A DNA stretch of 64,000 nt from a virus (taxonomy: Duplodnaviria; Caudoviricetes): IMG/VR virus record IMGVR_UViG_3300029822_000006, positions 3,809-67,808 of that record; one strand, given 5' to 3'. The position numbers were made by a program, and so were the translations under genes. Below the pieces are notes generated by a model, which saw only the letters and a program-made list of their open reading frames with translations, did not search any database and had not been told where the DNA came from. How positions within the stretch are numbered: the stretch's first letter is position 1; each line of letters starts with the position of its first letter. Shown here piece after piece: positions 2,541 to 47,562 of this stretch.

Positions 2541-2780
2541 ATGAATGAAAATGATAAATTGTTTAATGAATTAATAAAAGATGGCAAGGATTTTAAAGAA
2601 GCATTAGGTTTAACAGATGAAAAGGTATATGAGTTATTGAATAGAAGGGATAAAAACATTGATGAATTATTAGATAGTGATATTTGTATTGAATCAATGT
2701 TAAACTTTAATAATAGAAAAAAGATTAAAGAATATTTTGATAAACATTATAAAGAAACTGAAGAAGAAAAAAATATTTGA
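2541..2780 (+). CDS. hypothetical protein
   Basis: ORF with upstream AAGGA. Confidence 0.55.
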   Translation: MNENDKLFNELIKDGKDFKEALGLTDEKVYELLNRRDKNIDELLDSDICIESMLNFNNRKKIKEYFDKHYKETEEEKNI

Positions 2781-2806
2781 AGATTGGAAAGAGAGGAGAT
2801 TAAAAA

Positions 2807-3037
2807 ATGGAAAACAATAAAAATAAAAAAAATAAATTATTAAAAAGTGAGGATGATTTTATCTTTACAGAAGGATTTGATAAAGTTGTTGAAAGCATAG
2901 GAGAAGAAGAGTATGCAAAAATCAAAAAAGAGTTAGATGAAATTTGTAGTAAATTGCCTATACATGAATGTAAAGACGGGGTGATATTATTAGATAGAAA
3001 TAATCCTGATGATGTTGATTGGTATAATGAAGATTAA
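2807..3037 (+). CDS. hypothetical protein
   Basis: ORF with GAGGAG RBS. Confidence 0.6.
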   Translation: MENNKNKKNKLLKSEDDFIFTEGFDKVVESIGEEEYAKIKKELDEICSKLPIHECKDGVILLDRNNPDDVDWYNED

Positions 3038-3053
3038 TAATTAAATAAAGGAG

Positions 3054-3848
3054 ATGGTTGTTATTAACATATTAAATATAAAAGAAATATTAGATAAAGT
3101 ACATCCTAAAGATTGTATAGAATTTATGAAAACATTACCTGATAAATGTATAAATCTTATTATAGCAGATCCACCATATAATCAAGTGGTAGATAAAAAA
3201 TGGGATAATCAATGGAAAACTGAACAAGAATATTTAGATTGGTGTATAGAATGGATTAAAGAATGTAGTAGAATTTTAACAGACAATGGTAGTATTTACA
3301 TATGGGGTGGTATGGGAGATAAAACTATTAATTTTGCTAAATTAATTTGTGCTATTGAATATAATATAACTACTTTAACTAGAAAAAATGTAATAACAGT
3401 AAAAAGGAATAAAGGTCGAGGAAGTAATAAAAATTATATGCCTTGTAGAGAAGAATTAATATGGTTAGTAAAAAATCCTAAAGATTTTGTATTTAATAAA
3501 CCATATACTAGTGAATTAAAAAAGAAATATGGATATAAAAATAATAAAGATAAACCAGATTATAAAGTTGCAGGGAATATATGGACAGATATAACATTTC
3601 CTTGGTGGGGTAGTAAAGATGAACCATATATAAATGCTTGTCAGAAACCATTAAAAGCTTGTGATAGAATAATACAAACATCTAGTAATGAAAGAGATTT
3701 AGTTTACATACCTTTTGCTGGTAGTGGTTCTGAAATAATCAGTTGTATGAATAATAATAGATTATGGGTAGCCACAGAATTAGAAGAAAATAGTATAAAC
3801 AATATTATTACACCTAGAATAAATAAATTAAATAATAAGACAAATTGA
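3054..3848 (+). CDS. DNA N6-adenine/N4-cytosine methyltransferase (beta class)
   Basis: Catalytic IIADPPY precedes SAM-binding PFAGSGS; QKP motif. Confidence 0.9.
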   Translation: MVVINILNIKEILDKVHPKDCIEFMKTLPDKCINLIIADPPYNQVVDKKWDNQWKTEQEYLDWCIEWIKECSRILTDNGSIYIWGGMGDKTINFAKLICAIEYNITTLTRKNVITVKRNKGRGSNKNYMPCREELIWLVKNPKDFVFNKPYTSELKKKYGYKNNKDKPDYKVAGNIWTDITFPWWGSKDEPYINACQKPLKACDRIIQTSSNERDLVYIPFAGSGSEIISCMNNNRLWVATELEENSINNIITPRINKLNNKTN

Positions 3849-30108: not shown

Positions 30109-30186
30109 GAGAGTATAGCTCAGTTTGGTTAGAGCAACTGCCTGTTAAGCAGTAGGTCAAAGGTTCAAAGCCTTTTACTCTCGCCA
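30109..30186 (+). tRNA. tRNA-Asn(GTT)
   Basis: Acceptor stem GAGAGTA/TACTCTC, anticodon arm ACTGC-CTGTTAA-GCAGT, T-arm AAAGG-TTCAAAG-CCTTT, encoded CCA. Confidence 0.95.
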
Positions 30187-38271: not shown

Positions 38272-39258
38272 GTGCCGAAGAAAGTTGTAAAAAAGAATGA
38301 AGTGACAAATGGTGATAATAAAATACAATGTATTGGTAATTGTCGTTCTATAAAAACAAAAAATGATAGTAATTTCTTTAGATCAAATAATTCTAAACAT
38401 AATAATGATTTATATTCAGGATATGCCCCTATTTGTAAGCAATGTTTAAGAGAACAATGTTTTCAAAGTGATGGAAAAAATATAAATATAGAAGGTTTTA
38501 TGGAAGTATTAAAATTTCTCAATAAACCATTTGTACAAAAAGAATACTTAAGAGTTCTTAATTCTAAGAATGGATTTGATTTAGGACACTATATAAAAAA
38601 TATTGCTTTTAATTATAAAGGTTTAGAATTCAAAAATAGTGATAATAATTCTGAAGCTGTAAAAAATGCAACAGATATAATAAAAATTAATCCTTTAGTT
38701 ACCCAAGCTAATCAAAATATAGATAAATTAAGAGAAAAATTTGGATATGGATATGAGGATAAACAATATATTTTGTTTGAGAAAAAGTATCAGAATTTAA
38801 AACAATCTGTAAGTATAAAAACAGCTATGCATGAAGAATATTTTAAAGTTTATTGTGTAAATATGGTACTTAGTGATTTACACAAAGCAAATACCGATTC
38901 TAAAAAAGCTAAAGAATTTTATGATATGGCTCAAACTGCTGCAAAAGCAGGTAATTTTCAACCAAAAGATATAGATATATCAGGTGGTATTTCAAATTTT
39001 TCTGAATTATCATTAAAAATTGAAGAGACTCCAGAAGGAGAATTGATGGAGGTTTTACCTAGATTTAGAGAAGAACCAGAAGATAAAGTTGATATTGTGT
39101 TATGGGCACAAATTAATTATTTAAGACTAGCAAAAGGATTACCAGAGGCACCTTATAAAGATATATATGCATTTTATGATAGAAGAAGAGATGCTTATGA
39201 GAAACAAATTAATAATCGTATGAATGTAATATTGGGAAGTGAGAATAAAGATGAGTAA
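38272..39258 (+). CDS. putative terminase small subunit
   Basis: Directly upstream of the large terminase; N-terminal Cys motifs (CIGNC, ICKQC). Confidence 0.5.
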   Translation: MPKKVVKKNEVTNGDNKIQCIGNCRSIKTKNDSNFFRSNNSKHNNDLYSGYAPICKQCLREQCFQSDGKNINIEGFMEVLKFLNKPFVQKEYLRVLNSKNGFDLGHYIKNIAFNYKGLEFKNSDNNSEAVKNATDIIKINPLVTQANQNIDKLREKFGYGYEDKQYILFEKKYQNLKQSVSIKTAMHEEYFKVYCVNMVLSDLHKANTDSKKAKEFYDMAQTAAKAGNFQPKDIDISGGISNFSELSLKIEETPEGELMEVLPRFREEPEDKVDIVLWAQINYLRLAKGLPEAPYKDIYAFYDRRRDAYEKQINNRMNVILGSENKDE

Positions 39259-40931
39259 ACAAATTATTGCTAATGAAGATATTTTTCAAAAAAATATAAA
39301 TAAATGGATAAAATTTGCTCAATATATGAAATTTTACCCTGATATATTTTATGATCTTATAAAATCAGAAAAGGGTAGTTTAAGTTTAAATATGGATCAA
39401 AGAGTTTTTCTTCGTAGTTTGAGTAGATTTACAAATACTTATGCTTGTTATCCAAGAGGTTATGGGTAAAACTTTAATTGAATATATGTCTATATATCAT
39501 ACTTGTATATGGTTTCCTGGAATACGTATATCAATGTCAGCACAAACAAAAGAAAATGCTGCAAGTATATCAAGAGAAAAACATAATGATTTAATGGAAG
39601 CATTTCCTTTATTAAAAAATGAACTTGTAGAAAAAGAATGTCATTTTTCTAGAACGATGGCAACAGTGAAATTTAAAAATAATTCTACATATGATGTATT
39701 AGCTAATGCCCAAAGTACAAAAGGACAAAGAAGACAAAGATTAAATATAGAAGAAAGTGCTTTATTAAATAATGCATTATATAAAGATGCTTTAGAACCA
39801 GTTGTAAATGTTGCAAGAAGAACTAGAGGACAACTAGGGAAAGAAAATCCAATGGAACTTAATGGAATGATAAATTTTCTTACTACTACAGGATATAAAA
39901 ATTCAACTGAATATATGAGAGTAATTGATATGATTGATAAGATGGTAAATTTAGAAGGACAAATGGTTTTAGGTGCTAGTTGGAGATTACCTTGCTATTA
40001 TGGTAGAGGTGAAAATGAAGAACAGATATTAAAAAAGAAAAATGATCCTACATCTTCTTATGTAGATTTTCAAAGAAATTATGAAGAAGTATGGGTAGGA
40101 GCTGCCGATGATGCAATAATTGATATAAATAAATTAATGGATTGTCAAAATTATCCTATGGCTGTTTTAAAACCACAAAAAGATAGAGAATATTATTTAG
40201 GTGTTGACGTGGCAAGATCATCAAAAACTAGAAATAATAAATCTGCTTTTGTAGTATTTGAAGTAGAAAGAAATTCAGATAATACTATTAAAAATGCTTC
40301 GGTTGTAAATATAATTGTTCCTAAAAATGGATTGAATTTTTTTGATCAAAGTTTAATAGTAAAAAGATTAAATAAAGTATATAATTTTATATCTGTAATT
40401 GTAGATGCTAATGGTGTAGGTAGTGGATTAGTTGATACACTTATGATGGAAGCTTTAGATCCAAAAACAGGAGAAACTTATCCAGCATGGAATACTGAAA
40501 ACACAGATGATGAACCTAATGGACAAACTAGTTTAGATGCTCCATTATTATATGCTTTAAAAGCCACAGGTATTCAAACTAAAATAATAGTTGATTTTAT
40601 AGATTTTATAGAAAGTGATAGATTAAAATTATTAGTACCACTTAATGCTATAAATTTACCAGAAGAAGATAGTAAAAATAAAGAAGATATAAATAATATA
40701 AGAGCAGCACATTATCAAACAGATCAATTAAGAGATCAAATTGCTAATTTAAGAAAGGTAGATAAAAGTGCAGGAAATATTGATGTGGAACAAGTAAGTA
40801 AAGGTACAGATAAAGATATTTATTCTGCTTTAGTATATGGACTATATTATTTAAGAGAATTTGAGGATAAAAGAATAGAACAAAATAGTTCTTCTTTAGA
40901 GGAATTATTAGATTATACATTTTTTGTATAA
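39239..40931 (+). CDS. terL: terminase large subunit, split by a +1 frameshift at 39464-39469
   Basis: Walker A is restored across the shift (PRGYG-KTLIE); IEESA Walker B region; nuclease GVDVARS, VDANGVG, KDIYSAL. Confidence 0.88.
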
Positions 40932-41372: not shown

Positions 41373-42971
41373 ATGGCTAGAAAGAAAAGAGTAAGACCAC
41401 CTAAAAATCTACAACCTGAACAAGAAAAGATTTCTGAAAGAGAAGTTTATGATGTATTAACCTTTGCTAAAAGTATGATTAGTGGAACAGTATATACTCC
41501 TGAATTAGTAAATGCTAGGATGAAAGATTTAACATTAAATCCTACTGAACCTACTAATGATATGTTAGATACAGCATTAAAAGATCCTAAAAATAATGAA
41601 GATAATTTTCGTGCTATTAGTGAATGGTTTGAAATGACAGATATGTTATATAAAAGAAATTTATATTATTATGGAAATATGTTGAGTTTTGATCTTACAT
41701 GGACTTGTACTAATATAAAAAAATATGAAGAATATAATTCTGCTGCATATAAAAAAGATTTAGCAATATTATATGATTTTCTTGATAAATTTGATTCTAA
41801 ATTTGAGTTTAATAGAGCAGTTAGACAAATGACTAGACAAGATGCTTACTTTGTTGCATTACGTGATGAAGGAGAAAGATATACTTTACAAGAATTACCT
41901 ATTAAATATTGTAAAATAACTGGTAAAAGTAGAGATGATGCTTCTTATCTTTTTGATTTTGATTTAATGTATTTTATTAGAAATATAGCTGTAGATATTA
42001 ATACATATCCAAAAGTATTTAGAAATAAATATAGAAAAAGAATTGAAGATGGAAAAAATAATGGATATATTCCTTCATCATCAACAAATAATAGAAATGG
42101 AGAATGGGTTTATTGGGTTCAGACAAGTCCTGTAGATAATATGTGGTGTTTTAAATTTAATATGGAAGAAGCTACTCAATTACCATATTTTACTCCTCTA
42201 TTTAAAGATTTAATATTAACACCAATTGTACGAAATTTACAAACTAATAAATATATTATTGCTGCTAGTAGAATGTTAGTAGGATTAATTCCATTATTAA
42301 AAGATAACAAGTCAGGTAATTCAAGAAATAAAATGGCTATAGATCCTGTAACATTGGGACAATTTGCATCAGTAGTAAAACAAGGTTTACCAAATCCTGT
42401 ATCATTAGGAGTAGTACCTTTTGATGATATGAAAGAATTTGATTTTAGTAAAGCACAAGAAACTAATATTTATAGAGAACATAATTTAAATATTGGTATA
42501 AATACAGGTTCAAGAATGTCCTATCCTGCACAACAACAAAATGCTATTGAGAGTCAAAGTTCTCTTGATGTAGATAAAATGATGGTTGAATATTTATATC
42601 CACAATTTAACCATTTTTTAAATTATTATGTTAATAAAAGAACTAAAAAATATAAGTTTAATTTTTTCTTTGAGGGATTTAAATTTAATTCTGATAGACA
42701 AAATAGAATAGATACTGCTATGAAAATGGCTTCTGTAGGTATAACTTCATTTCCTAAAATAGCTGCTGCGTGGGGAATGTTACCTCAAGATTTGCAAAGA
42801 CAAATGGCAGAATCTAGTATGATGGGGTGGATAGACAATTTAGTACCACTATTAAATATGTATAATCAATCTCAAGATCAAGGTAGACCACAAAATCAAC
42901 AAATAAATAATGATAATACATTGAAAAGCAGAGAAACGGGATCAAATGTTCAAAAAGGTGGAAAAATATAA
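41373..42971 (+). CDS. portal protein
   Basis: 532 aa, positioned between terminase and protease; portal-like helical pattern. Confidence 0.7.
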   Translation: MARKKRVRPPKNLQPEQEKISEREVYDVLTFAKSMISGTVYTPELVNARMKDLTLNPTEPTNDMLDTALKDPKNNEDNFRAISEWFEMTDMLYKRNLYYYGNMLSFDLTWTCTNIKKYEEYNSAAYKKDLAILYDFLDKFDSKFEFNRAVRQMTRQDAYFVALRDEGERYTLQELPIKYCKITGKSRDDASYLFDFDLMYFIRNIAVDINTYPKVFRNKYRKRIEDGKNNGYIPSSSTNNRNGEWVYWVQTSPVDNMWCFKFNMEEATQLPYFTPLFKDLILTPIVRNLQTNKYIIAASRMLVGLIPLLKDNKSGNSRNKMAIDPVTLGQFASVVKQGLPNPVSLGVVPFDDMKEFDFSKAQETNIYREHNLNIGINTGSRMSYPAQQQNAIESQSSLDVDKMMVEYLYPQFNHFLNYYVNKRTKKYKFNFFFEGFKFNSDRQNRIDTAMKMASVGITSFPKIAAAWGMLPQDLQRQMAESSMMGWIDNLVPLLNMYNQSQDQGRPQNQQINNDNTLKSRETGSNVQKGGKI

Positions 42972-43782: not shown

Positions 43783-46700
43783 TTGCAAAAAGAAAAACTA
43801 GATTTTGAAGCAAAATTAGATAATCCAACAAAAATAAATGATTTAATTACTAGATATAAATGTTATATTTGTTCACCTAATGAATTAGCAAATGGATATA
43901 TGTTCCCTCAATCTACTTTAGATAAAATGAAAAATTCTATTCTTGGAACTGCTGTAGTGGCAGCATTTATCGGAGACAATAATGATGGATCACGTTTTGG
44001 TGGTCATGAAGATGGATTAACTAAAAATCAGAATGGAATGACTATAAGAAGTCCTATGCCAATTGGTGTTGGGTTTGCCGATCCTTATCTTGAACCTTGG
44101 ATGGAAGAATATAAGGGAAGACAATTTCTTACATGTTATATATATCTTTGGACGGGTAGATATCAAGGATTGAATACTATACCAGAAAGAACTATATATC
44201 AATCTATGGAAGTTTGCACAGATGATGAACAAAAAGATGGATATAAATTAGTAAATGATGCATTAGTATTAGGATTATGTTTACTAGAAGGTGGAGATGG
44301 AGGAGTTCAACCAGCTTTTGATGATGCAACAATAGTACCATTTTCTAGAAATGATGTTCAATTAGATATTAATAAAATGAAAAAAGAATTTGCTGAAATG
44401 ATGAATAATATTTCAGATAAGTATAAATCATTAAACTTTAAAATACCTCAAAAAGTTAAAGATAATGCAAAAGAAGGATTAGAATTACATAAAAAATATA
44501 AAAGAGGAGGTACTTCTGTAGGATTAGCTACTGCTAATTATCTAATTAATAATGATGTTGTTTCTCCTGATAAAGTAAGACATATAGCCAAATATTTTCC
44601 TAGACATTCAGGTGACAACCTTGATGAAAATGGTAAAAATGATAAACCTGTAAGTAATGGATTTATTGCTTGGTGTTTGTCTGCTGATTCTAAGATACTT
44701 ATGGCAGATGGTAATTTTAAAACAGCAAAAGAAATTTGTGAAAAACATATAACTGATAAAGTTATTAGCTATAATACTATGACAAATAAATTTGAAGAAA
44801 AGAAGATAATAAATTGGTTTATTAATCCCTCAGAACCAAAAGATTTTTATGTAATAGGAAAAAATAAACAAAATCATAGAGGTGTTTTTAATGATACTAA
44901 ATTAATTATTACAGGAGAACATCCTTTTTATAGTAATAATCAATGGATACCTGCAAAAGATATGAAAAATAAAAATCTAAATTCTATACATTATTGTTTA
45001 GATGATATTGGTATGCAAATAATATATGGAAGTATATTAGGTGATGGATGTATTGCTAAAGATGGAAGATATGCAGAAGGTCATGGTATAGTACAAAAAG
45101 ACTATATATTAGAAAAAAAACGAATTTTAAAAAATTTAAATATTAGAGATTATATATATATACCAAAATGTGGATATAGTAAAGGGAAACAAGAAATTCA
45201 AATAAGATCATCTGTTTGTCAATTTTTAAAAGATATAAGAGATGAATTATATATAGATAATAAAAAAACTATTAATTTAAATTTTTTAAATAAAATAAAT
45301 AATATAGGTATAGCAATATGGATAGCTGATGATGGACATTTACATTACAATAAAAAAAATAATAATTCGTATAATTATAGATTGCATATAGAAGGATTTG
45401 ATAAAAAATCAGCAAATATTATTAAGGAATATTTTATTAACAAAGGTTATAATTGTAATTTAATAAAAAGAGAAAATTGTGATGGTTATTGTTTGTATTT
45501 TACTCAAGAAGCTTCTAGAAATCTTGGAAAAAACATTGCTAAATATATGCCTATTTCAATGAAATATAAAATACCATTAGAATTTAAAGAAATAAATTAT
45601 GAATTAAAAGATTATGTATCAAACTTAAAATATTATTTGTCAGAAGAACAAGTTACTAAACATTTAAATTTGACTGAATATAAAGATAGACACTCTATTC
45701 AGCCTAAAAAACATTCGTTAAAGTATAATTTTACAGTAGAAGATAATAATAATTATTTTGCAAATGGATTTTTAGTTCATAACTGTCTTTGGGGAGGGGA
45801 TGAAGCTTGGAAATGGAGTCAAGATTTAGTAGATTCTATGAATAAAATAGATAAAAAAGAAAAGGAGAGAAAAACTGAAGAAAACTTTGATAAAAATGAA
45901 TTGGGTAGTGGTGATTATTCTATAAAAATAAATAAATCTAAAGAGGCTATGAGTAATACATCTTGGGGAAATGTAGATAAAACTTCTCAATTACATAAAG
46001 TTATTAAAGCTAAAAATGTTAAAACAGTAGTTGATGATATTTTTGCTTTAGTTGAAGCAGATTGGGAAAATGCACCATCTAAACATCTTAAATATCCAAT
46101 AATGGAAGTAAAGAGTGATAATGAAGCTGTTTATAATAGAGGAGCTTTGAAATCAGCATTAGGTTATGCAAAAGCACAAAATGAGACTACTGTTATTTCT
46201 AAGTTAGTTAAAATTTATAAAGATTTAGAATTAAATAAAGAGAATGCTAAAGAATTTGATTTTAGTTATGAAGAATATGATGTTATGTTTTCTGATGATA
46301 AAGCTAATATGTCTAAAGATCAAAATAATTCAACAGAAGAAATAATAAATAATGATAATACAATTATAAAGGAGGATAAAAATAATATGTCTAAAAGTTT
46401 TGCAAAAAAAGAAATGTTAGAAAAAATGTCTAAGTGTTTAGAAGAATGTAAATACACTAAAGACGATAAGGAAATGTGTAAATATAGTGTTGTTAGTTAT
46501 GATAATGAAAATATTTATGCAATAGATAAGGAAAATTGTAAAATGTCTGCAATTCCTTATTCTGTAGATGGTGAAGATATAAAACCAGATTGTGGTAATT
46601 GTAAGTGTGCTAAATTAATTTGTGGTGTTTATTCTGATGATGGAGAAGACAATGAAGATAGTGATGTAATGATGGCTTTAAATCAGAAATTTACTACAGA

Positions 46701-47178
46701 TGAAAATATTGAAGGATTAGCTAATATAGCTAGAAGTAAAGATGAAACTGAAGCTGATAAAAAGAAAATAGCTGAAATGGAAGCAAAAATACAAAAGATG
46801 GAAGAAGATTATAATAAATTAAAATGTTCTTATGATGAAATGTCAAAATTAAAATGTGATTTTGAAAATAAGAATAATGATTTGCAAGTTAAAATGAGCA
46901 AATTAGAAACAGATAAAAAGAATACAATAATAAATAATGCAATAGAAGAAATAAAAGGATTAGTTCCAGAAGGAGATATAGAAAAATTACAAAATAAAGT
47001 AAATGATTTTTCTAAAATTGAAGATTGGGTAGAACATACTCAGGCTTTTGCTTTTAAATATATAAAGGAAAATCCTACTAGATTACCTTTAAATGGTGAT
47101 TTTCAAAAAATAGATCCTAATGATATTTGGGGAAAAGATATCTCAAAAGATGATACATGGAATATAGAAAATAAATAA
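43783..47178 (+). CDS. prohead protease/scaffold polyprotein containing an intein
   Basis: N-terminal protease-like region (GGHE...QSMEV...PAF), accessory domains, C-terminal coiled coil; lies upstream of the capsid genes. Confidence 0.75.
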   Translation: MQKEKLDFEAKLDNPTKINDLITRYKCYICSPNELANGYMFPQSTLDKMKNSILGTAVVAAFIGDNNDGSRFGGHEDGLTKNQNGMTIRSPMPIGVGFADPYLEPWMEEYKGRQFLTCYIYLWTGRYQGLNTIPERTIYQSMEVCTDDEQKDGYKLVNDALVLGLCLLEGGDGGVQPAFDDATIVPFSRNDVQLDINKMKKEFAEMMNNISDKYKSLNFKIPQKVKDNAKEGLELHKKYKRGGTSVGLATANYLINNDVVSPDKVRHIAKYFPRHSGDNLDENGKNDKPVSNGFIAWCLSADSKILMADGNFKTAKEICEKHITDKVISYNTMTNKFEEKKIINWFINPSEPKDFYVIGKNKQNHRGVFNDTKLIITGEHPFYSNNQWIPAKDMKNKNLNSIHYCLDDIGMQIIYGSILGDGCIAKDGRYAEGHGIVQKDYILEKKRILKNLNIRDYIYIPKCGYSKGKQEIQIRSSVCQFLKDIRDELYIDNKKTINLNFLNKINNIGIAIWIADDGHLHYNKKNNNSYNYRLHIEGFDKKSANIIKEYFINKGYNCNLIKRENCDGYCLYFTQEASRNLGKNIAKYMPISMKYKIPLEFKEINYELKDYVSNLKYYLSEEQVTKHLNLTEYKDRHSIQPKKHSLKYNFTVEDNNNYFANGFLVHNCLWGGDEAWKWSQDLVDSMNKIDKKEKERKTEENFDKNELGSGDYSIKINKSKEAMSNTSWGNVDKTSQLHKVIKAKNVKTVVDDIFALVEADWENAPSKHLKYPIMEVKSDNEAVYNRGALKSALGYAKAQNETTVISKLVKIYKDLELNKENAKEFDFSYEEYDVMFSDDKANMSKDQNNSTEEIINNDNTIIKEDKNNMSKSFAKKEMLEKMSKCLEECKYTKDDKEMCKYSVVSYDNENIYAIDKENCKMSAIPYSVDGEDIKPDCGNCKCAKLICGVYSDDGEDNEDSDVMMALNQKFTTDENIEGLANIARSKDETEADKKKIAEMEAKIQKMEEDYNKLKCSYDEMSKLKCDFENKNNDLQVKMSKLETDKKNTIINNAIEEIKGLVPEGDIEKLQNKVNDFSKIEDWVEHTQAFAFKYIKENPTRLPLNGDFQKIDPNDIWGKDISKDDTWNIENK
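44674..45783 (+). mobile_element. 370-aa intein with LAGLIDADG homing endonuclease
   Basis: AW|CLSADSKIL ... ANGFLVHN|CLWGG; internal YGSILGDG and IWIADDG motifs. Confidence 0.92.
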
Positions 47179-47193
47179 AGGAGGTTTTATATA

Positions 47194-47562
47194 ATGGCTA
47201 TAGCTATAAGTGATACACAAAAAGTAGCATTAGATAAAATGTGTATGACAGCAAAAGATGTAACTTTAGGTACAGTAATTCAGACATTAGGAACAAATGT
47301 AGATAATCTAGGGGAAATTGTAGATGGTTTAGATACTATTGCTGCAGGCACACATACAGTTTCTTCTAGTGAAGGTACTGCTGAAACTTGTACTATAGAT
47401 ACAGGTAAAACAATTACTGGTTTTATAGTACAAATTTATAGAAGTGGAAAACTTACAACTAATTATGCAGTATCAGCAAGTACAACAAATTTAACAATTG
47501 CTACAAATAGTACAGATTATGTGCTTACAAGTGGAGATGTTATTAATTATATTATATTTTAA
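47194..47562 (+). CDS. putative head-associated structural protein
   Basis: T/S/G-rich; located in the head module. Confidence 0.45.
   Translation: MAIAISDTQKVALDKMCMTAKDVTLGTVIQTLGTNVDNLGEIVDGLDTIAAGTHTVSSSEGTAETCTIDTGKTITGFIVQIYRSGKLTTNYAVSASTTNLTIATNSTDYVLTSGDVINYIIF

Follow-up and report, generated by a model that had tools for sequence, protein, structure and literature searches.

The window analysed in this study is a stretch of 64,000 nt (positions 3,809 to 67,808 of the IMG/VR virus record IMGVR_UViG_3300029822_000006) from a large, AT-rich and uncultured phage; the record is a virus fragment with an estimated completeness of 37% and a G+C content of about 24%. Its gene order comprises a YonG-like gene (38272-39258, + strand; PF27269 YonG_N on the copies in the loci L004-L008, and phrog_3314), the gene of the large terminase subunit (terL), a small ORF, the portal gene of the packaging module (41373-42971, + strand; phrog_2739, E 1.7e-53) and a YonD-like gene, which places terL at the packaging-module position. 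The 1131-aa YonD-like protein (43783-47178) gave matches to PT-HINT, Intein_splicing and LAGLIDADG_2 on identical copies (L004, L006 and L007), so that one of the head-module genes of this very phage contains a homing intein. A tRNA-Asn (GTT) at 30109-30186 is called in agreement with Rfam. The ARAGORN call of a tRNA-Tyr (ATA) at 47360-47448 lies inside an ORF (47194-47562), has no Rfam support and is probably false.

The terL gene, which is the only visible large-terminase gene in the window, is broken into two ORFs (ORF1 and ORF2). Profile and similarity searches assign it to the large terminases of the SPbeta/YonF type: ORF2 matches phrog_2 (large terminase subunit, E 1.8e-11), and in tblastn (127 phage records) the best match was the terminase of Psychrobacillus phage Perkons with 48% identity, followed by YonF proteins of the SPbeta group. 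Neither ORF1 nor ORF2 matched in a Pfam search, a PDB sequence search with the terL family profile gave no match, and a search for related loci with a single protein query retrieved none among viral or metagenome contigs. The structural model of P0004, an uninterrupted relative with 58% identity (mean pLDDT 65), matches T4 gp17 (3cpe, E 2.6e-12) and also HK97 TerL and the G20c nuclease domain (TMt 0.73). The predicted structure thus displays the two-domain TerL fold with an ASCE ATPase and an RNase-H-like nuclease.

Direct reading of the window at 39452-39473 gives the letters CCA AGA GGT TAT GGG TAA AAC T, just as an earlier note on this DNA had described them at the Walker A motif of the terminase. 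ORF1, the 5' part of terL (39251-39469, + strand; ORF reading, phrog_15503 and dN/dS), encodes 72 aa from the ATG at 39251 up to CYPRGYG, directly before the TAA at 39467-39469. The 3' part (39468-40931, + strand; phrog_15503, phrog_2 and the 48% identity to Perkons) begins with KTLIEY in the +1 frame and encodes 487 aa plus the stop, namely the remainder of the ATPase domain and the nuclease domain. This +1 frame reads GGT AAA ACT from 39465 and is open up to 40931, and there is one extra base between the Gly and the Lys codon of the Walker A motif. The candidate shift site is G GGU (39464-39467, + strand), where a P-site GGG (39464-39466) overlaps with a GGU available for re-pairing (39465-39467), and the zero-frame stop stands immediately 3' of the shift codon, a so-called shifty stop; the letters are alike in the loci L156 and L165 (see below).

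The profile phrog_15503 spans both pieces without a seam, since residues 5-72 of ORF1 correspond to profile positions 30-97 and residues 1-179 of ORF2 to positions 97-245. If GGGT is taken as a single step, an uninterrupted protein of 559 aa with the motif PRGYGKT results, and it is only after this +1 join that a P-loop of the form PRGxGK[TS] is present in the window's TerL. The statement of the earlier note that a +1 slip from GGG to GGT yields RGYG-KT is correct, and the motif is that of the relatives: it has the same length of seven codons in 111 of 111 readable uninterrupted loci. With a motif of invariable length, a +1 step at GGG is the sole way of restoring it. Shifts of -1 or -2 would alter the length and were rejected, as was read-through of the TAA, because the two parts lie in different frames and a TGA follows.

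The break is present in real DNA. The protein collection lists the exact 496-aa ORF2 protein in 35 blocks, and ORF2 lies on at least 22 contigs (ENA, JGI, Logan and NCBI), each time with the 72-aa ORF in front; one of these contigs has 196 kb at 47x coverage. In six loci (L004-L008 and L011) the terL DNA is identical to that of the window. The stretch was found in runs of 2014, 2024 and 2025 from several studies and assemblies, with the same genotype in fermentation samples of 2014 and 2024. The caveat that the additional G might be a read error has thus lost its ground, and a sequencing or assembly artefact is excluded, because independent assemblies made with different assemblers agree on the same site. 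The same phage is also represented by L010 (JGI 3300038321), which exhibits a 30-nt in-frame deletion in terL (window 39758-39787) and a 4-nt deletion (window 40822-40825), so that the called ORF has only 452 aa; these deletions may be genuine or may stem from the assembly.

A relative with the same break is L003, a Logan contig of 3 kb. It differs from the window at 92 of 1681 bases (5.5%) and is identical in the 22-nt site, and its substitutions flank this site closely (39451, 39474 and 39476). For this reason, the site was not brought in by a recent recombination tract. Compared to L003, ORF1 has a dN/dS of 0.09 with 12 of 17 changes in third codon positions, and ORF2 has a dN/dS of 0.12 with 49 of 73 changes in third positions. 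In the wrong frames, dN/dS between the window and L003 is about 1 or higher, and the third-position bias is confined to the frame proper to each part. Both halves therefore stayed coding in their own frames while the shift was present, and no further stops or indels occur across the 1.7 kb of terL. In principle, the shift common to the window and L003 could be parallel instead of inherited, if the site is a mutational hot spot.

Most relatives are not interrupted. From IMG/VR and GTDB, 115 loci were sampled regardless of the site, and about 110 of them are uninterrupted, with a short gap in none. A Logan contig from a sludge metagenome (run X14; 352 nt, depth 4) is about 94% identical to the window and has most of the L003 substitutions, and its 14-nt overhang appears to be in frame, with GGA TAT GGA before AAA ACT. 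This suggests, from a single low-depth contig, that shifted and unshifted alleles coexist among phages that are about 94% identical. Other contigs of run X14 are identical to the window, which suggests that the genome is mosaic or the population mixed. Since relatives are mostly uninterrupted, including the one with about 94% identity, the shift appears to be a derived and dispensable allele rather than a regulatory device that is fixed in the family. The earlier note had reckoned with the case that all relatives have an uninterrupted gene; this applies to about 110 of the 115 loci and to the sludge relative, but not to L003, L156 and L165, which keep the shift.

The two loci mentioned last represent an independent lineage. 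L156 was found via a search of short proteins with an alignment of N-terminal parts, and its relative L165 afterwards by a DNA pattern scan of IMG/VR for the +1 design, in which 14 of 15 matches were ordinary P-loop genes out of frame and L165 was the sole real one. The corresponding scan for a 5-nt gap design gave chance matches only, and a search for short N-terminal ORFs with ORF1 alone retrieved only the window's lineage. The N-terminal part of L156 and L165 is 44% identical to that of the window, and the two loci form a distant and well-supported clade. Both carry AGG GGG TAC GGG TAA followed by G AC, that is, the same GGG-TAA design as the window. Between them, ORF1 differs by five synonymous and no non-synonymous changes and ORF2, over 165 aligned codons, by 20 synonymous and no non-synonymous changes.

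Interruptions of other lengths exist at the same codon boundary. L032 and L038 have a 5-nt gap, GGT TAG GT before AAR ACT, with matched GGT codons on either side; L032 was seen in 11 contigs of one study, and the proteins of L032 and L038 are 58% identical. L155 has an 8-nt gap, GGT TGA GAG GA before AAA (GGT to GGA), and in L019 (also L030 and L031) GGT is followed by an 11-nt gap that opens with TGA and closes with GGT, and then by AAA ACA. As both frames are closed by stops in L019, a single slip cannot join them. The gaps of 5, 8 and 11 nt thus share one build, consisting of a Gly codon, a stop, a Gly codon and AAR ACN. L032, L038, L155 and L019 have long intact ORFs on both sides and keep the GKT codons with no start codon before them, and all four show what is expected of a bypass, matched take-off and landing codons and a stop in the A site. 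In the window the take-off and landing codons overlap due to the 1-nt gap, and the event would therefore be a frameshift and not a hop. L039, from a sister lineage of L032, has a 4-nt gap (GGT TAG C before AAA ACA; L039:2166-2195) without a Gly landing codon and a downstream ORF of only 166 aa; the hop may have decayed in this allele, or the contig may be of poor quality. Overall, the stop directly follows a Gly codon in all seven short-gap alleles found, and the design of a slippery Gly codon with an immediate stop is present in six of the seven. P0098 (L028 and L029) was rejected as a further gap, since its contigs merely end at Walker A.

On a tree of 121 sequences the label "recoded" needs five changes, at least three of which are forced by well-supported branches. 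The tree indicates that the recoded alleles arose independently more than once. Judged by these sequences, the window's allele is the 1-nt member of a set of recurrent, stop-led coding gaps of 1, 5, 8 and 11 nt in YonF-type terminases.

It is probable that full-length TerL is made by a +1 frameshift at the shifty stop GGG-TAA that is actually used. Two phage lineages keep the break under strong purifying selection, and the ribosomes therefore most likely slip by one base; the same observation in two independent lineages favors a used frameshift over an inactivating mutation. According to the proposed mechanism, the peptidyl-tRNA-Gly would occupy the rare P-site codon GGG (39464-39466) while UAA stands in the A site, and would re-pair with the overlapping GGU, so that AAA ACU (Lys and Thr) would be read next and the product would continue as PRGYG-KT. 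Non-shifting ribosomes would release a fragment of 72 aa. Since full-length TerL could only arise via the one-base forward move, the shift would be required for packaging, and it would probably limit the amount of TerL made. At every gap length, the peptidyl-tRNA would be able to leave a Gly codon in front of a stop and to re-pair with a Gly codon for landing, be it by a slip or a hop. Alternatively, Lys-tRNA may bind out of frame, without any slippage in the P site. The slip at the site, its efficiency and any help from the upstream GAGGU are what we infer from these patterns.

The elements around the shift codon support this mechanism to a different extent. Among the Gly codons of the window, GGG is rare (58 of 891), and TAA is the usual stop. 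UAA is served by both release factors and there is no sign of slow termination, which counts against a shift. Also against it, a tRNA-Gly with the anticodon UCC, should the host use one here, would form a U:U wobble mismatch on GGU after the slip. The purine-rich stretch AAGAGGT (39454-39460, + strand), which consists of the last A of the Pro codon and of the Arg and Gly codons, is a candidate Shine-Dalgarno (SD)-like stimulator. The best pairing with the 16S tail is GAGGU at 39456-39460, with a spacer to the shift codon of 3 nt counting the U at 39460, or of 4 nt from the last G. Measured through this pairing, the distance to the shift codon exceeds that of E. coli prfB by one base, and the two geometries agree only with the U at 39460 taken as part of the SD. 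In the window, AGA accounts for 82% of the Arg codons and GGT for 38% of the Gly codons, and codon usage alone predicts the SD-like letters at about 0.3. The element is therefore unproven, and its reading as a special signal by the earlier note is weakened, since codon usage yields those letters anyway. AGAGGT occurs in three of seven recoded lineages compared to seven of 111 uninterrupted loci (Fisher 0.013, or 0.035 on distinct sites), a weak enrichment that is suggestive only. RNA folding of 39440-39580 revealed no significantly stable structure (z -1.5), and neither a suppressor tRNA nor a tRNA-Gly was found in the window.

The alternatives have to be weighed against the same observations. 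The extra base might be an inactivating lesion that is tolerated in a defective prophage or in a non-viable subpopulation, with no full-length TerL being made from this allele. That most relatives are uninterrupted, and a close one is seemingly in frame, would fit such a dead gene; the identical genotype in the fermentation samples of 2014 and 2024 could reflect the prophage of one bacterial strain; and the L039 allele, with its 4-nt gap, missing Gly landing codon and short downstream ORF, resembles decay. We nevertheless regard a dead gene as unlikely, for strong purifying selection acts on both halves in two independent lineages that each share their own shift, 1.7 kb have remained free of further stops and indels, the window and L003 agree around the site over just 22 nt, which were not recently spread by recombination, and the slippery Gly codon with its immediate stop recurs in six of seven alleles. 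Purifying selection on both halves is equally compatible with a terminase in two pieces, in which ORF1 and a re-initiated ORF2 (ATG 39462, MGKT) would assemble non-covalently, the start of ORF2 being coupled to termination at 39467-39469 with the assistance of AAGAGGT. Indeed, there is an in-frame ATG one codon 5' of GKT that overlaps the stop region and has the SD-like sequence just before it. But the ATG arises here automatically from TAT followed by G, its spacing to the SD-like sequence is just 1-2 nt, and the cut would lie within the P-loop itself. Moreover, L156/L165, L032, L038 and L019 have no start codon before GKT and their first ATG follows it, and separate translation of the second part would therefore lose the Walker A lysine in these sister designs. 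We regard a terminase in two pieces as unlikely too, slightly more so than a dead gene.

A correction of the frame prior to translation, by transcriptional slippage or RNA editing, is, together with the artefact already dealt with, highly improbable. Nothing specific speaks for a correction in RNA apart from the G3 and A4 runs that flank the site, and productive slippage of RNA polymerase is known from far longer runs. Gaps of 5, 8 and 11 nt as in the relatives could not be removed in this way either.

There are similarities and differences between the proposed frameshift of the terL gene and other recoding systems. To our knowledge, bacteria and phages rarely depend on +1 frameshifting, and short hops over a stop are known almost exclusively as engineered constructs, with T4 gene 60 and the phiHau3 terminase as the natural exceptions. 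In E. coli prfB, the SD-like AGGGGG is reportedly separated from the shift codon by a 3-nt spacer (Baranov 2002, as cited in PMC10732093), and L156 and L165 likewise have AGGGGG with a spacer of 3 nt. The window shares with prfB a P-site codon that allows its tRNA to re-pair one base forward and a stop as the A-site codon, and a few bases upstream it has a purine-rich stretch resembling an SD as a candidate stimulator. It differs in the shift codon, which is GGG (to GGU) and not CUU (to UUU), in the stop, which is UAA and not the RF2-specific UGA, and in the SD register, which is one base longer. The "perfect prfB-style" cassette of the earlier note is consequently correct as to the slip codon with an immediate stop but not as to the identity of the stop and the SD register. 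Furthermore, since the stop of the terminase gene is UAA, there is no autoregulatory feedback loop via RF2, and the gene is that of a phage terminase with a derived allele that is no family-wide trait.

A parallel in gene identity is provided by the Streptomyces phage phiHau3 and two prophages, in which gaps of 7-10 nt in the large terminase are bypassed with a change of frame (PMC10732093; Smith et al. 2013 cited there). Such gaps are found in a small minority of relatives (3/100), the take-off codon is Gly, the junction is GWG, the product has no extra residues and mass spectrometry detected the peptide that spans the junction (PMC10732093). The window has in common with phiHau3 the large terminase of a phage, the short frame-changing gap, the Gly take-off codon and the status as a minority allele. 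In phiHau3, a rare sense codon, UUA, acts as the trigger in the A site, whereas a stop takes this place in the window, and the phiHau3 sites lie outside Walker A, whereas the window's gap is a single base within it, with overlapping take-off and landing codons. T4 gene 60 also has a Gly take-off codon, a stop directly after it and a matched Gly landing codon. However, its gap of 50 nt needs a nascent-peptide signal and a take-off hairpin (PMC5009743; bioRxiv 10.1101/2022.08.31.505936), and no significantly stable fold was found at the window's site (z -1.5). The shifty stops and synthetic +5/+6 stop-hops constructed in E. coli (Weiss, Dunn, Atkins and Gesteland 1987, as cited in PMC5009743) share with the mechanism proposed for the terL sites the re-pairing of the peptidyl-tRNA at an overlapping or nearby matched codon with a stop in the A site, and the series of +1, +5, +8 and +11 in terL mirrors these constructs. 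While those were engineered reporters of low efficiency, the terL sites occur naturally, in a gene that is essential, and selection maintains them. For terL, frameshifts have until now been a matter of speculation in single genomes only (PMC9030533, PMC11512304), and in the literature we found no description of a conserved +1 site or of a stop-led gap series in the Walker A motif of a terminase.

An essential enzyme is thus interrupted within its catalytic P-loop, and the interruption is conserved under selection. The natural set of alleles at one codon boundary can be used for testing how gap length, the identity of the stop and the SD-like sequence set the efficiency. The observation is also of interest for annotation, as a terL gene of this kind is called as a pair of ORFs or as a pseudogene and its phage might be scored as defective.

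The codon boundary concerned is flanked by the insertion sites of mobile elements. In Perkons, L122 and L154, the Walker A motif of terL contains an intein between GK and T. This intein of about 440-450 aa (Perkons at L001:869-3985) starts with C, ends with HN and is followed by T. In L035 (4292-5325) and L036 (2577-3600), an insert of about 1 kb with a LAGLIDADG ORF follows PRG, the ORF of L036 lying at 2621-3352; the insert of L035 matches the Rfam group I intron family RF00028 below the threshold (35.7 bits, E 3e-7). L142 (187-480) carries a 294-nt version without the LAGLIDADG ORF, for which Rfam gave no match, and the protein collection contains about 30 more short ORFs that stop exactly at PRG. 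The group I-like intron site lies 6 nt upstream of the Gly/Lys boundary and the intein site 3 nt downstream of it.

It is tempting to ask why such gaps should exist at this place. In T4 gene 60 the gap lies in the target DNA of a homing endonuclease and protects against MobA (PMC5009743; bioRxiv 10.1101/2022.08.31.505936), and a similar protection is a possible reason for the gaps in terL. By this analogy, the gaps of 1, 5, 8 and 11 nt might be "saviour indels" that destroy the homing-endonuclease targets of the intron and the intein at Walker A, an explanation that is plausible but that we put forward only tentatively, as less likely than not. The cost of immunity against the endonuclease would be a ribosomal slip or hop past a stop. 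If this were true, the conflict with selfish elements would have turned the YonF-type terminases into a family of naturally occurring shifty stops and short stop-hops, and recoding would serve a phage gene as a defense against selfish nucleases.

Two further observations concern the vicinity of the motif in relatives. A GIY-YIG/NUMOD3 homing-endonuclease-like gene (L038:1171-1977) is located directly 5' of the interrupted terL of L038, after the YonG-like gene. Finally, L028 and L029 are two independent assemblies that end exactly at Walker A, as is expected if the population is polymorphic there, for instance with regard to an intein.
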